From Promethearchaeota archaeon (lineage in GTDB: Archaea > Asgardarchaeota > Lokiarchaeia > Sigyniarchaeales > SOKP01): a stretch of DNA of 18,199 nt. The notes under the pieces were generated by a model. The model saw only the letters and a list, made by a program, of their open reading frames with translations. It was not told the DNA's origin and ran no database searches. Position numbers and translations under genes: made by a program. This document shows, in pieces, positions 2,816 through 8,783 of the stretch; position 1 is the first letter of the stretch; each line of letters opens with the position of its first letter. Location of the stretch: NCBI GenBank assembly GCA_008080735.1, contig SHMW01000087.1:1-18199 (forward strand), written 5' to 3'.

Positions 2816-4114
2816 TTATCGTTTTGCTTGCCTTGGTATAATTTTCTTTTTTCCGTTCATATATTTGCGTAGGATTTTGGGTATGGTAATCGAATGGTCT
2901 TCATTCTGATAGTTCTCAAGTAAGCAACAAATCGTCCTCTCCGTTGCAATGGCAGTAGAATTTAATGTGTGGACGATATCTTTTTCTTTCTGGGTTCCCA
3001 CTTTCCCCATCCGGATCTTGAGTTTCCTGGCTTGATAATCAAGGCAATTACTGCACGAGACTAATTCCCGATAAGTCTGAGATGCCGGAAACCAAGCCTC
3101 TAAATCATATTTTTTCGCAGCGTTATCATTCAACTCTCCTGATGCGATACTAACGATACGATAGGGTAAGCTTAATCTCTTGTAAAATATTTCCGCATTT
3201 GAGATTAATTCTTCGTGAAAGTCCCAAGATTGCTCGGGTTTACAAAAGACAAACTGTTCAATTTTCTCGAATTGATGAACTCGAAAGATTCCGAGGGTGT
3301 CCTTTCCGTGAGAGCCCGCTTCTCTTCTAAAACACGATGAAATACCCGCATACTTCAACGGTAAGATATCAGGATCCAAAATCTCGTCATAATGATATGC
3401 CGCAAGTGTTTGTTCCGAGGTGGCTATCATGTAGAGATCTTCGTCTTGAATCTTATATAACTGCTCTTCAAAATCAGCAAGCTCCGCAGCTGCTTTAATA
3501 ACTTCATATTTGACGAAGAATGGAGTCCACATGGGGGTATATCCTTTTTCTTGTAAGATCTCAAGCCCAAACTTCATTAACGCTAAATTTAGCATGGCGA
3601 GATCACCTTTCAAATAATAAAACCTCGAACCTACTACTTGTGAGGCTTTAGTCGTGTCCGCGCCATCTATTAGCTCGACAAGATCTACGTGAGACACGGG
3701 GGTAAAACTAAACTCGGGATGTGTGCCTCCTTCTCGAATAATTTTGTTTTCTTCCTCCGTTTCACCAATCGGTACGGTGTCGTGGAGGATATTTCCCACA
3801 ACATATCTATATTCTTCTCTCTTGTTCAAGAACTCATCTGCCTTTACCTCTAAGGCTTCAATCTCCTCCTTTATAGCTGCAGATTCGCTTATTGCGTTTT
3901 GTGCTCTCTTCTCGTCTCCCTTTTTTTTATATTCTGCGATCGAATGAGAGATTTTGTTACGTTTTTCTCGCAAGCTTTGAAGCTCTCCTAACACTTCCCT
4001 CCATTTGATATCAAATTCTAACACTTTTCTGGCATTTTGTTGGTTCTTGAACCGTTTTTCCTCTGATGCCACTATTTTTTCAATATTTTCCCTGAAGATT
4101 TCTATATCAAGCAT
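2816..4114 (-). CDS. serS: Seryl-tRNA synthetase (standard/bacterial-eukaryal type)
   Basis: MLDI start with N-terminal coiled-coil arm, TSE loop (IATSEQ), motif 2 FRREAG...GIFRVHQFEKIE, ELVSCSNC.DYQAR, and motif 3 HTLNSTAIATER. Confidence 0.97.
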   Translation of the reverse strand: MLDIEIFRENIEKIVASEEKRFKNQQNARKVLEFDIKWREVLGELQSLREKRNKISHSIAEYKKKGDEKRAQNAISESAAIKEEIEALEVKADEFLNKREEYRYVVGNILHDTVPIGETEEENKIIREGGTHPEFSFTPVSHVDLVELIDGADTTKASQVVGSRFYYLKGDLAMLNLALMKFGLEILQEKGYTPMWTPFFVKYEVIKAAAELADFEEQLYKIQDEDLYMIATSEQTLAAYHYDEILDPDILPLKYAGISSCFRREAGSHGKDTLGIFRVHQFEKIEQFVFCKPEQSWDFHEELISNAEIFYKRLSLPYRIVSIASGELNDNAAKKYDLEAWFPASQTYRELVSCSNCLDYQARKLKIRMGKVGTQKEKDIVHTLNSTAIATERTICCLLENYQNEDHSITIPKILRKYMNGKKKIIPRQAKR

Positions 4115-4215
4115 GATTCCTTAAGATTTTTTAAGAATTGTTTTAGTCAATATTATAATTCACATAGATATAAATAATAACCGGAATTAAAGAAAGCTCA
4201 GATTTTATGATTTTT

Positions 4216-4401
4216 TTATTCATGTTTGATGCGATCGGTGATTGTGGAGCGCAATAGGGCAGTTTTCACTTTTCTCTTATCAAATCCGACGTTCTGTATT
4301 ATCCTCATGATTTTCATTCTCCGAGCTTTTCCTTTTAGACCTTCCTCTGCCATAAACTCTCGTGCGAATTCCTCGATTTTCTCATCATTGTTATCTGACA
4401 T
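4216..4401 (-). CDS. Small helical hypothetical protein (61 aa)
   Basis: ATG start, TAA stop, protein-like composition, co-oriented upstream of serS. Confidence 0.65.
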   Translation of the reverse strand: MSDNNDEKIEEFAREFMAEEGLKGKARRMKIMRIIQNVGFDKRKVKTALLRSTITDRIKHE

Positions 4402-4722
4402 ATCTATGGAGTAAAATGTATATTACCATAAAAAATTTAATGAGAATCCTTGAACTAAAAATATTAATGATATAGTTTAGTATAATATTTCCTACAATTC
4501 TTTCAGATTCTAACCTTTAAAAAATACTAATATTACTTTGAATGCGTTTATACAAGATTTTATTTAACCCCAGATTTAGCATTTTGATCATTCCTTAATC
4601 ATTTTTGAAAACGCCGTTATTAGTTTTAATAACAAAAAATAAATTCATTCCACAATTTTCTGAATCAAGAAAAATAAAAAAAAAACCTTAAAATTAATGG
4701 TGATTTTGAGAAGGGGATTAAA

Positions 4723-6723
4723 TTGTCTGATGATAAACAGACCAAGGATGAAGTTAGGATTGGAGTTTACGTCTGCGAGTGAGGCGTGAATATTGGAGCT
4801 ACTATAGATTGCGATGCGGTACGGAAATTTGTTGAGGGGCAACCGAATGTGGTCGTTGCTAGAACTAATAAATTTACGTGTAGTGATCCTGGACAACAAG
4901 TCATAAAAAACGATATTTTAGAATTAGACATTAATAGAGTAGTAGTTGGAGCATGCACCCCAAAAATACACGAACCTACCTATAGAGCGGTGCTTATTGA
5001 GGCAGGATTAAGTCCGTATTATTTCCAGATGGTCAATTTAAGAGAGCAATGCTCGTTTGTCCATGCGGATAAAAAAGAAAGGGCAACGGGAAAAGCCAAA
5101 CGACTAATGACCGCTGGTATAAATCGAGCACGAGAATTAGAATCCGTTCCTCGAAAAGAAATACCAATCGAGAAATCCGTACTGATCGTGGGTGCGGGTA
5201 TTGCCGGTATGAATGCAGCCTTAGATTTGGCTGATCAAGGCATAAATGTGTACCTTGTAGAGAAGGAACCCACTATCGGCGGTAAAATGGCCCAATTGGA
5301 CAGAATTTTTCCAACTGACGATTGCGGGATCTGAGTACTGGCCCCTATAATGGTCAATGCGTCAAAACATCCGAATATCACCCTACTGACCTATAGTGAT
5401 GTAGTGGAATTTAGTGGTATAACTGGAGATTATAAAGTAAAAATTCGGAAAAAGCCCCGCTATGTAGATCCCGATGTATGCACTGGCTGTGGTCTCTGTA
5501 CGACGAAATGTCCCATAAATATGCCGAACGAGTTTGATAGGGGCATTGGAGAGCGGGGAGCCATATATATTCCATTCCCACAAGCGGTTCCTAAGCTTGC
5601 GGTTATAGATATGGATGTATGCATTGGATGTAAAAGTTGCGAACGAACATGCCCAGCTGAAGCAATAGATTTTGAGCAAGAACCCCAATATGAGGAGATA
5701 AAGGTGGGTTCTGTAATCATTGCGACTGGCTGGGACGAATACCCAATTTGGGAGTCAAATGAATATAAATACGGCATTTATCCTGATGTGATCACCCAGA
5801 TTGAATTAGAGCGGATGCTGAGTCCGATAGGTCCTACCGATGGACATGTTTATAGAGTATCTGACGGAAAGCAACCCAAAAAAGTTGCGATGATACAATG
5901 TGTTGGTTCGCGAACTCTGCGGGGAAACGAATATTGTTCGGGTGTGTGTTGTAATGTCGCTCTAAAAAACGCGAATTTACTTAAACAAGAATATCCCAAT
6001 ATGGAACTTGTAATATTTTACATTGATATTCGCTCGCCTGATAAAGGAAACGAGGAATATTATCGAAAGATTCGGGAATCAGGAGTTACCTTTATTAAAG
6101 GGAAGCCAGGAGATATTAAACGAACGGAAAACGGAAGTTTGCGACTGTTTTACGATAACGCGCTACTTGATCAAGTAACTCATATGGATTTTGATTTAGT
6201 CGTCCTTTCAACGGGAATTATACCCTCGAAAGGAACACACGAAATTATAAACACAATGGGACTAAGTAGCGGTCCTAGCGGCTTTCTCTCAGAGATCCAT
6301 GGATGCCTCAAACCACAAGAAACAAAAAATATGGGAATTTATATTTGTGGCTGTGCTGCGGGACCTAAAAATATACCATATTCGGTCTCGACCGCGTTAG
6401 CTGCCGCGAGTAAAGCATCTACTTTGCTTTCTAACGACACGATTAGTCAAGAATTAATCATCGCTGAAGTGAATGAGGAGTTATGTATGGGCTGTCATAG
6501 ATGTGAGAAAGTGTGTTATTATGATGCCATTAAAGTTGCGGATGATGATATTGCGGTGGTTGATGATCTAAAATGTAAGGGATGCGGTGCTTGTGTAACC
6601 TCATGTCCTGCTAGAGCGATTGATATCAAGTATTATCGGGAAGCCCAATTCGAGGAAGAAATCAAAGGCATCGGAATGACAGAGATACCGATTGAGGATG
6701 CGGAAGCGATGGTAGAAAAATAA
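4723..6723 (+). CDS. hdrA: Heterodisulfide reductase subunit A (FAD/FeS electron-bifurcating subunit); selenoprotein with 2 Sec (U20, U204), 666 aa
   Basis: Single frame from TTG 4723 (purine-rich GAGAAGGGG upstream) to TAA 6721-6723. TGA 4780-4782 lies in RIGVYVCE-U-GVNI (family RIGVyvChCG.NI). TGA 5332-5334 lies in FPTDDCGI-U-VLAP (family FPTlDCs.CiL.P). Also present: GACTP, GAGIAG FAD motif, inserted and C-terminal 2x[4Fe-4S] ferredoxin motifs, and QCVGSR...YCSGVCC. Confidence 0.93.
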
Positions 6724-6741
6724 ACAATGCGGTGGTTATAA

Positions 6742-7161
6742 ATGTCCAAAGAAAACAACAAGAGAAATATAATTGCGTTTGCTTGCGATAAATGAGGGTA
6801 TGCGGCGGCCGATTTGACCGGGACAACCAGAAAAACCTATACGACCGATGTCAATCTAATTAGAGTACGCTGTACAGGAAGAGTTGGTATTCATTTAATT
6901 ATGGATTGTTTTGTAAATGGTGCGGATGGTGTTGCCATCATTTCATGACAAGAAGGTGAATGTGAGTTTGGAAATGGAAACCTCGTGGCATATAAACATC
7001 TGAGTATGCTGAAGAAAATTTTTACACATCTTGGGATTTCTGAAAAACGTATACAGCAATATTTTTGTTCCGCTGCTGATGTTGAAAAATTTATCAGTTC
7101 AGTAAAAGATATCTCACAAAAGATTCACGCACTCCCTCCTTTACCTAAAAAAACCGAATAG
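6742..7161 (+). CDS. mvhD: MvhD/VhuD [2Fe-2S] hydrogenase delta subunit; selenoprotein with 2 Sec (U18, U69), 139 aa; absent from the ORF track
   Basis: Manual translation: MSKENNKRNIIAFACDK-U-GYAAADLTG...LIRVRCTGRV...NGADGVAIIS-U-QEGECEFGNGN...PPLPKKTE*. TGA 6793-6795 and TGA 6946-6948 match the Cys in family motifs FlCnwCsY.gAD and GADGV...gCh.gdChy. Stop is TAG 7159-7161. GGTGG lies upstream of the ATG. Confidence 0.93.
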
Positions 7162-7221
7162 AATGATTCTTTCGAACAAATTATAGTCGTAAGATGACAA
7201 CCTTGCAAGGGTTAATTCGGT
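7153..7221 (+). promoter_or_regulatory. Putative SECIS element (eukaryote-like, tandem G.A core) 3' of mvhD
   Basis: A-UGAU (7163-7167) sits opposite UGAC (7195-7198). The upper helix is UCUUUCGA (7168-7175) / UCGUAAGA (7187-7194) with one U.U, closed by C7177-G7186, and the apical loop begins AAA (7178-7180). A lower helix ACCGAAU (7153-7159) / AUUCGGU (7215-7221) is possible. Folded by eye. Confidence 0.78.
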
Positions 7222-7280
7222 AAAGAGTTTTTTAATTATTATCAATGAATTTTTAGAATGTAACAATAGCATATAGAATT

Positions 7281-8783
7281 ATGAGTAATAAAGTTAATAA
7301 TGAAGTGAAGTTTTCTTGGGAATACCTTAAAAGTGTAATGCAGACATTGGATTCCTATAAGGTACGAGCTTTAATAGATGCTAAGGAAGAAATTATTGAA
7401 TGTGAAGTTTATGATGAGGAAGAATATAATAAAATTTTATTAAAGCTAATCGATGAAGAGAGAATAAAATATCAATTATATAATTACTTGAGAAATAATC
7501 AAACCCTCAATCTTTCCAACTTGGAAGCATTTTCTGAAGACTATGATCTCTTGCTTAGAAAAACATTAAGTCTGGCATATCTATTAGAAAAAGAACAATT
7601 AATAACCATACAGGAAGTATATGAGAAAAATGAAAATGCTGAAGGAGGTTCGAAAAAAATATTCAAAGATTTGGTTGTCTCAGTGGACGATGTTAATCTC
7701 ACTTCTATTAAACCGATATATGAACCTGTAAAAGTCATATTTGATTCCGAAATATGTTCTGGATGCGGGATATGCGCTGGCATCTGTCCTGTTGATTGTA
7801 TTATGATAAAAAATGGATTTGGAGAAATCGATGATGATAAATGTATACGATGTGGATTATGTTATCATGTGTGTCCACGATCTTATTTACCAGTGGATAT
7901 ACTTAATATGTATCAAGACAACGTCTCCGAGTATAAAGATTATGGGAAGATAGGAACCTTTAAGGAAGCATATTGCGCTCGCACGAAAATCGATGAAATA
8001 CGTGAAGTATGTCAAGATGGGGGTGTTTCTAGTACAGCCTTATATTATCTTTTGGATAATAATATAGTTGATCTCGCCTTAGGAGCAAAAATGGGAGAAA
8101 AACTATGGTGTCCCGAGCCAACTATAATAGAAAGTAAAGAAGATATTCTCAACACAGCGGGCACTAAATATGTGAATAATCCGAATTTAATGCTTCTAAA
8201 TCAAGTGGGACCTGAGAAAAAAGTAGCTGTAGTAGGTGTACCTTGTATGATGCAAGCATTGCTTAAATCAAAAATTTTTGATATTGATATTCCCTCATTA
8301 ACCAATGTAAAATATCGGATAGGAATCTTTTGTATGGAATCTTTTCCATATCAAGAGGGATTCCTTAAGATATGCGAGAAACTAAATGTGGATGTGGAAA
8401 ACGTCAAAAAGACTGATATAAATAAAGGAAAGTTCTTTATTTATACAAAAGACGGAGAGGAGCTTAGTGTTCCCATTAAAGAGGTAACTAGCTTAGCACG
8501 AGAAGATTGCGAGGTCTGCTTCGACCTTACCTCAGAATCCGCAGATATTTCAATTGGCTCGATTGGTGCCCCCTCCGGATGGAATGCGGTCTTGGTAAGA
8601 ACAGAGGAAGGAAAAGAGTTATATCAGGCTTTGTTGGAAAATGACCTAATTGAATCGAAACCAATTGATGAGGTCAAACCAGGATTACCATTACTCATAA
8701 AAATTGCGAATAGTAAACGTAAGAAAAGTAACTCACATATTTCTAAAAAGAAAGAAAACAACCAAAAATATCCTCAATATTAA
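7281..8783 (+). CDS. F420 hydrogenase/dehydrogenase beta subunit family (FrhB/FdhB/FpoF-like) with 2x[4Fe-4S] ferredoxin and ~150-aa N-terminal extension
   Basis: Ferredoxin motifs CSGCGICAGICP and CIRCGLCYHVCP. FrhB-type motifs QDGGVSS, AGTKY, VVGVPC, IGIFCME and CEVCFDLTSESADISIGSIGAPSGW. Confidence 0.88.
   Translation: MSNKVNNEVKFSWEYLKSVMQTLDSYKVRALIDAKEEIIECEVYDEEEYNKILLKLIDEERIKYQLYNYLRNNQTLNLSNLEAFSEDYDLLLRKTLSLAYLLEKEQLITIQEVYEKNENAEGGSKKIFKDLVVSVDDVNLTSIKPIYEPVKVIFDSEICSGCGICAGICPVDCIMIKNGFGEIDDDKCIRCGLCYHVCPRSYLPVDILNMYQDNVSEYKDYGKIGTFKEAYCARTKIDEIREVCQDGGVSSTALYYLLDNNIVDLALGAKMGEKLWCPEPTIIESKEDILNTAGTKYVNNPNLMLLNQVGPEKKVAVVGVPCMMQALLKSKIFDIDIPSLTNVKYRIGIFCMESFPYQEGFLKICEKLNVDVENVKKTDINKGKFFIYTKDGEELSVPIKEVTSLAREDCEVCFDLTSESADISIGSIGAPSGWNAVLVRTEEGKELYQALLENDLIESKPIDEVKPGLPLLIKIANSKRKKSNSHISKKKENNQKYPQY

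Follow-up and report, generated by a model that had tools for sequence, protein, structure and literature searches.

The closest described counterparts of the locus analyzed here are the selenoprotein gene tandems of Lokiarchaeota, in which a multi-selenocysteine (multi-Sec) HdrA and a two-Sec VhuD are encoded side by side and a single selenocysteine insertion sequence (SECIS), termed lokiSECIS, follows the VhuD gene; the SECIS was concluded to be shared on a polycistronic mRNA, serving up to six UGA codons over approximately 2 kb (Mariotti et al., 2016; PMC4989117). In Asgard archaea, hdrA and frhD were always found as neighbors, and almost all of these pairs share one eukaryote-like SECIS (eSECIS-like) structure, predominantly of type I (Huang et al., 2024; PMC11227280); a 2026 review repeats the shared-SECIS account of hdrA and frhD. 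The present locus, an hdrA-mvhD gene pair, lies on an 18,199-nt stretch of DNA from a Promethearchaeota archaeon (Promethearchaeia, formerly Lokiarchaeia; contig SHMW01000087.1 of assembly GCA_008080735.1), which was analyzed over its full length and is here called the window. The pair conforms to the published arrangement: it very probably represents two selenoproteins encoded on one mRNA, with four UGA codons predicted to be read as Sec through a single shared SECIS. A preliminary description of this DNA had presented such an arrangement as novel, a claim that does not hold, as the two earlier studies already set out a common SECIS, its use on a polycistronic mRNA, and a reach of approximately 2 kb (PMC4989117; PMC11227280).

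Nothing essential separates the window from the Lokiarchaeota HdrA-VhuD tandem (PMC4989117). Gene order, strand, and the very short spacer are the same, and the orthologues of the window locus fit as well, with either a short spacer or overlapping hdrA and mvhD genes. The two systems also share the multi-Sec HdrA, including the site near residue 200, the two-Sec VhuD, the UAA or UAG stop codon of hdrA, and the lokiSECIS directly after vhuD, with its AUGA, 9-bp stem, 11-nt A-rich loop ending in AG, and GA; the window pair has two plus two predicted Sec codons, compared to up to six per pair in the earlier study. The VhuD and HdrA proteins of Methanococcales and Methanopyrus belong to orthologous families with corresponding Sec sites (near residue 197 in HdrA; two in VhuD), the genes show hdrA-vhuD synteny, and the VhuD SECIS has the AUGA...GA/AA core. 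In contrast to the window, the SECIS in these methanogens is of the GAA_A type, which is absent from the window, and HdrA contains a single Sec; according to Mariotti et al. (2016; PMC4989117), the methanogen HdrA has its own SECIS. The eukaryotic multi-Sec mRNAs exemplified by SELENOP resemble the predicted situation in the window, in that a kink-turn SECIS in untranslated RNA acts from a distance on several UGA codons (PMC4989117); these mRNAs are monocistronic, carry two SECIS elements, and require SBP2, whereas the window has two cistrons and one compact SECIS, and SBP2 was not found in Loki (PMC4989117).

The hdrA product, read through its two in-frame TGA codons, is a full-length HdrA with an FAD domain, two ferredoxin domains, and the N-terminal cluster domain, as judged by PDB and Pfam matches (coordinates of all features in Table 1). 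The solved chains 9sfi_A, 5odc_A, and 8rvu_a match this product over residues ~3-650 with E-values down to 1e-211, the alignment to 9sfi_A covering residues 11-650 (E = 1.3e-211); the best NCBIfam family is NF040770 (HdrA2), with 835.9 bits, below the 1100-bit cut-off of that model. The mvhD product matches the Pfam family FlpD (PF02662) at profile positions 1-122 of 123 (E = 7.7e-38), and MvhD chains in the PDB align with it over residues 7-137. In the N-terminal CxCG motif, hdrA codon 20 aligns with the second Cys (Cys in 9sfi_A), and codon 204 aligns with residue X (Sec) in 9sfi_A, a solved Methanococcales-type HdrA. By homology with Cys197, whose role in the solved HdrA complex has been described (PMC9012536), both HdrA Sec residues probably ligate the N-terminal [4Fe-4S] cluster, one per protomer. 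The factual basis of the preliminary description proved accurate on re-reading of the sequence: its in-frame TGAs at 4780, 5332, 6793, and 6946 were exactly placed, its 18-nt distance between hdrA and mvhD corresponds to positions 6724-6741, and its statement that each TGA replaces a conserved Cys agrees with the alignments to solved HdrA and MvhD proteins, which put Cys or Sec opposite all four. Within the 18-nt spacer, the motif GGTGG resembles a Shine-Dalgarno site; as a separate observation, many orthologues have a second GGTGA-like motif ~27 nt before the hdrA start.

Table 1. Features of the hdrA-mvhD locus and its surroundings; positions are those of the window.
Feature	Position	Strand	Details
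Seryl-tRNA synthetase gene	2816-4114	-	divergent, upstream of hdrA
hdrA	4723-6723	+	666 codons; start TTG 4723, stop TAA 6721-6723; two UGA codons predicted as Sec
Start-codon hairpin	4725-4742	+	5 bp: G of TTG plus UCUG (4725-4729) with CAGAC (4738-4742); 8-nt loop
hdrA UGA codon 20 (predicted Sec)	4780-4782	+	N-terminal CxUG motif; 2381 nt upstream of SECIS
hdrA UGA codon 204 (predicted Sec)	5332-5334	+	corresponds to Cys197 in solved complex; canonical position of Sec in HdrA
Spacer between cistrons	6724-6741	+	18 nt; GGTGG 6731-6735, 6 nt before mvhD ATG
mvhD/vhuD (FlpD family)	6742-7161	+	139 codons; ATG 6742, stop TAG 7159-7161; two UGA codons predicted as Sec
mvhD UGA codon 18 (predicted Sec)	6793-6795	+	opposite Cys in 9sw2_D and 7bkb_F
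mvhD UGA codon 69 (predicted Sec)	6946-6948	+	opposite Cys; 215 nt upstream of SECIS
Extended SECIS domain	7153-7221	+	lower helix, SECIS hairpin, and side hairpin; folds and covariance model R2
Loki-type (eukaryote-like) SECIS core	7163-7197	+	begins one base after mvhD TAG; pattern scan and covariance model
T6 run	7228-7233	+	downstream of SECIS domain; read from sequence
FrhB-like F420-binding subunit with ferredoxin domains	7281-8783	+	NF006807, 276.7 bits

Conservation of the TGA codons was followed through an MvhD search of 30 related genomes, 17 of which contain an orthologue (59-85% identity) with the TGAs present; the whole operon of these 17 relatives was codon-aligned with the window locus, giving 18 loci from separate assemblies. 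TGA occupies hdrA codon 20, hdrA codon 204, and mvhD codon 18 in 18/18 loci each, and mvhD codon 69 in 16/18, the remaining two loci having Cys in this position; the preliminary expectation of TGA opposite Cys in homologue alignments was thus borne out, with the sites kept in 16-18 of 18 loci. At hdrA codon 78 (4954-4956), the window has Cys and 3/18 orthologues have TGA, which makes this codon a predicted third position for Sec, used facultatively within this lineage of HdrA. Exchange of Sec and Cys at fixed positions in independent assemblies identifies true Sec codons and excludes sequencing error and gene decay. The hdrA stop codon is TAA in the window, and TAA or TAG, never TGA, in all 18 orthologues and in three Sec-type paralogues, as would be expected if a UGA in this position were read through.

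The putative SECIS, by its sequence a kink-turn that would direct Sec insertion, consists of AUGA (7163-7166), a stem (7167-7175 with 7187-7195) of nine positions with seven pairs and two U.U, an 11-nt apical loop (7176-7186), and GA (7196-7197). The apical loop, ACAAAUUAUAG, is A-rich in its first five bases and ends in G preceded by A; the element thereby has every listed published sequence feature of the lokiSECIS and of the Asgard eSECIS-like type I. Across 26 aligned SECIS elements, AUGA is invariant, as are AAA and AG in the loop, and compensatory changes occur at all nine stem pairs; the percentage of paired positions is circular, since the elements were chosen by a pairing rule, yet covariation at homologous sites is not. 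A covariance model (R1) built from these 26 elements and run with filters off recovered the window SECIS with 58 bits (E = 1.2e-11; 7158-7202) as the sole significant match in the window; the next match scored 10.5 bits, and the best within 4300-7157 scored 8.5 bits (E = 4.5). A locus left out of the training set scored 48.2 bits. In 20 further hdrA-mvhD loci, searched with approximately 650 nt of upstream sequence, the same model gave one significant match each, always after mvhD, and in the 17 orthologues the SECIS begins 1-15 nt after the mvhD stop codon or overlaps it. The earlier view that the only convincing SECIS follows mvhD is thus upheld by the covariance model scans, with one match in the window and one per pair in the 20 loci.

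The SECIS core is part of a larger fold in which ACCGAA (7153-7158) and UUCGGU (7216-7221) form a lower helix around two hairpins, that of the SECIS and a side hairpin (7199-7213) with a conserved GC in its loop; the mvhD stop codon is located in the junction of this domain. The extended domain scored 67.6 bits with covariance model R2. Across 28 elements, in an alignment fitted to the model, pairing amounts to 80.6% in the lower helix and 90.3% in the side hairpin, and two-sided changes occur in 9/10 pairs of the two helices. All 18 orthologues keep the domain, and matches to this architecture also lie behind other selenoprotein genes in the genome. Neither the lower helix with its side hairpin nor the start-codon hairpin discussed below is mentioned in the available portion of Mariotti et al. 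(2016; PMC4989117); the survey of Huang et al. (2024; PMC11227280) models a lower stem with an internal loop, and its available text contains neither a side hairpin nor a 5' element.

Searches for other recoding signals yielded nothing SECIS-like within the coding sequences or upstream of hdrA, where the preliminary description had asked for further elements. Rfam SECIS families gave no match in the whole window at gathering thresholds, nor in 4300-7400 at E<=10; standard tools likewise miss the lokiSECIS (Mariotti et al., 2016; PMC4989117). A pattern scan for the methanogen-type GAA_A SECIS in 4400-7300 returned 0 matches. Bacterial-type local hairpins after the UGA codons were rejected, as fold z-scores ranged from -1.4 to +1.6 and none was unusual, and so was a hidden element inside the coding sequences, as synonymous-site conservation did not exceed z 2.2 in any segment except for the first hdrA codons.

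Combined, the single SECIS and the conserved TGAs support, at the level of sequence analysis, the preliminary proposal that one 3' SECIS recodes four UGAs in two cistrons over ~2.4 kb. Under this reading, one mRNA extending at least from 4723 to about 7221 would carry both hdrA and mvhD, and an EFSec of the archaeal/eukaryal type would deliver Sec-tRNA(Sec) at the four UGA codons; the SECIS would act over 2381, 1829, 368, and 215 nt, for hdrA across its stop codon, the 18-nt spacer, and re-initiation at mvhD. Since the two invariant hdrA UGAs need Sec decoding and the only SECIS lies behind mvhD, the hdrA mRNA would have to reach at least position 7221; a promoter would not fit into the 18 nt that separate hdrA from mvhD. 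Reporter work in Methanococcus indicated that distance is not strictly limiting; no experimental test of SECIS action across cistrons was found in the literature.

The T6 run downstream of the extended SECIS domain is a possible archaeal terminator; T-runs are found in only about half of the orthologues. The gene for the FrhB-like subunit begins 119 nt after mvhD and has the same position in 17/17 orthologous loci; since it follows the SECIS in all of them, the SECIS may be intercistronic rather than strictly 3'-terminal. The FrhB-like protein is a probable partner of HdrA-MvhD, and by gene content the three proteins may form one F420-linked module without HdrBC nearby; an F420-linked complex is also suggested by the best family of HdrA, which is the F420-dependent HdrA2 type.

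A second conserved RNA structure, a hairpin, is located at the start codon of hdrA, where the first codons form the only strong peak of synonymous-site conservation (z 5.7). The hairpin is present in the centroid fold; its loop is A-rich and varies between 5 and 11 nt. The hairpin codons show no synonymous variation in 17/18 orthologues, although TCT, CAG, and ACC are minor codons that each account for only 21-26% of their own synonymous family. Four sequences have the variant CAGAU, which keeps a G.U pair and replaces Thr with Ile; retention of pairing together with a changed amino acid speaks for a constraint on the RNA more than for one on the peptide or for a palindrome in the DNA. The hairpin codons lie outside the conserved HdrA fold, as the alignment to solved homologues starts only at residue ~9-12. 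In the 4.15 Mb genome, three copies of the exact pattern are present, each at the start of a Sec-type hdrA. A covariance model of the hairpin (R3) found it in 74/81 genomes of this family, with 1-4 copies per genome, and did not find it in 20 genomes of three sister families or in four genomes of one genus; 50/50 inspected matches covered an hdrA start codon, in each case of a gene whose UGAs lie at codon 17-24 and at codon ~201-209, and the hairpin-bearing genes span several hdrA paralogue types. Four further ideas were judged by eye and discarded for lack of support: loop-loop pairing of the 5' hairpin with the SECIS apical loop; an upstream out-of-frame open reading frame (ORF) starting from a distal ATGGTGA; base pairing between CAGAC and a second GUCUG immediately ahead of codon 20, which the orthologues do not conserve; and a dimeric DNA-binding site, whose half-sites would be separated by a variable 5 to 11 nt. 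Where Sec-type hdrA paralogues lack the hairpin, they have nucleotide-conserved start regions of their own (groups L125-L139 and L123-L140): GGAATGATATGCA precedes the ATG in one group, and ATGCAACGGATTGG occurs inside the initial codons in another.

As a best guess, the hairpin may control how translation of these selenoprotein mRNAs is initiated; that it takes part directly in recoding has a low probability. A more specific model appears unlikely, in which the hairpin would be a second cis-acting element that either gates initiation, so that ribosomes reach the slow UGA near codon 20 singly, or tethers the recoding complex near the 5' end and thereby aids the distant SECIS. Still less probable is a division of labor in which the SECIS serves mvhD only and the hdrA UGAs are recoded via another signal at or in hdrA, for example the hairpin at 4725-4742. 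Such a signal could be sought in a nucleotide-conserved hairpin that was found only on Sec-type hdrA (50/50 inspected), that is absent upstream of the ~50 Cys-type mvhD loci listed, and that precedes the first hdrA UGA by only 38 nt; yet it lacks SECIS features, the AUGA/GA core among them, receives no score from the SECIS model, and cannot account for codon 204. Moreover, the hairpin is not required for Sec decoding, since hdrA genes without it keep both UGAs, in the genus whose four genomes lack the hairpin (in the one genome examined, G013, a Sec-type hdrA retains both codons) and in several paralogue groups, including the copy on contig C42 of the same genome and the loci L123-L140. The hairpin constitutes a modest new lead; it was not mentioned in the literature searched on Asgard hdrA-mvhD and SECIS.

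Sec decoding by the shared SECIS presupposes a Sec machinery, and the genome (4.15 Mb in 140 contigs, 93% complete) encodes a complete set, in agreement with the preliminary expectation that EFSec, SepSecS, PSTK, SelD, and tRNA-Sec should be present. SepSecS matched TIGR03531 with 491.7 bits (cut-off 224.85) and SelB/EFSec matched TIGR00475 with 244.2 bits, just over the cut-off of 242.25; PSTK matched TIGR03574 with 178.9 bits, under the cut-off of 290.5 yet by far as the best family; and SelD, which has its own in-frame UGA at codon 19, matched TIGR00476 with 187.4 bits (cut-off 125). The tRNA-Sec gene was located by blastn with a same-genus tRNA-Sec query on contig C15 (60230-60370, minus strand), between the genes for SepSecS (58167-59531) and EFSec (64704-66122). 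It contains two introns, one of 22 nt after position 37 and one of 29 nt in the T loop; a T-loop intron in Loki tRNA-Sec was reported previously (Mariotti et al., 2016; PMC4989117). The spliced tRNA has 90 nt and the archaeal 9/4 cloverleaf, with a 9-bp acceptor stem, a 4-bp T stem, and G73, a 7-bp D stem with a 4-nt loop, a 6-bp anticodon stem, the UCA anticodon, and a long variable arm. ARAGORN (with and without introns) and Rfam found no tRNA-Sec in this genome, the unspliced gene remaining below the Rfam cut-off; both miss the gene because of its two introns. Two structural pattern scans of the genome returned only noise or nothing, and an Rfam search around the Sec gene cluster gave nothing useful. 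Six same-genus genomes have tRNA-Sec matches, 4/6 of them above the Rfam cut-off, and 6/6 have the orthologous operon; in related genomes, tRNA-Sec exceeded the Rfam cut-off in 20/31.

This machinery bears on the proposal that the UGAs are read by near-cognate Cys or Trp tRNAs, or that TGA is generally reassigned, without involvement of Sec. Replacement of TGA by Cys at one site in 2/18 orthologues indicates that Cys is functionally acceptable there; the proposal is nevertheless highly improbable, given a complete and specific Sec machinery that includes a Sec-containing SelD, and a conserved SECIS behind each such gene pair. General reassignment is contradicted by the use of TGA as a stop codon: TGA ends two genes of the window and approximately 17% of long ORFs genome-wide (crude count: TAA 1133, TGA 292, TAG 254). 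That the TGAs are true stops in decaying genes or assembly errors, with only fragments being made, has a negligible probability. Ordinary ORF calling does split both hdrA and mvhD, yet the TGAs coincide in the alignment of 16-18 of 18 genomes that were assembled independently, and the frame stays intact after each TGA, with 59-85% protein identity and continuing motifs.

Four points weigh against decoding of all four UGAs through the single SECIS behind mvhD. The stem of the window SECIS carries two U.U mismatches; contamination of the genome, a metagenome bin, is estimated at 7%, although the same-genus genomes likewise have tRNA-Sec matches and the orthologous operon; with the hairpin at the 5' end of hdrA, the operon contains a conserved RNA element besides the SECIS; and a promoter inside hdrA, or processing between the cistrons, may be compatible with the sequence.

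Further predicted selenoprotein genes lie elsewhere in the same genome, where a SECIS pattern scan found about ten elements. A SECIS follows each of three other Sec-type hdrA-mvhD pairs, on contigs C13, C42, and C49. A two-Sec peroxiredoxin-like (AhpC/TSA) gene on contig C10 (33575-34066, minus strand) has a WUGHU redox box and is followed, 15 nt behind its stop codon, by a separate lokiSECIS; a third TGA, at codon 35, is possible. Three TGA-containing ORFs, on contigs C7 (24804-25256, minus strand), C89 (10043-10384, plus strand), and C102 (10160-10357, plus strand), have a strong lokiSECIS within 2-21 nt and no Pfam match; the C7 ORF contains two adjacent TGAs in the motif GCUUEK. From these sequence features, all three are possible uncatalogued selenoproteins. 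Upstream of the hdrA gene in the window lies the divergent gene for seryl-tRNA synthetase, an enzyme that also charges tRNA-Sec; the 608-nt AT-rich spacer between the two genes (4115-4722) contains no confident RNA or ORF.

The locus illustrates that gene callers still split both genes of such pairs, and that a tRNA-Sec with two introns can be missed. Should the start-codon hairpin prove to have a part in recoding or in control by selenium, archaeal selenoprotein synthesis would gain a new regulatory element. The arrangement of the gene pair bears on the origin of the eukaryotic SECIS system in the 3' untranslated region, since it occurs in the archaeal lineage closest to eukaryotes, a point already made in 2016; to this, the window locus adds a verified example with conservation data from 18 genomes. 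The hdrA-mvhD arrangement would constitute the best example in nature of a single SECIS whose action extends over a stop codon and a re-initiation site in a prokaryotic polycistronic mRNA.

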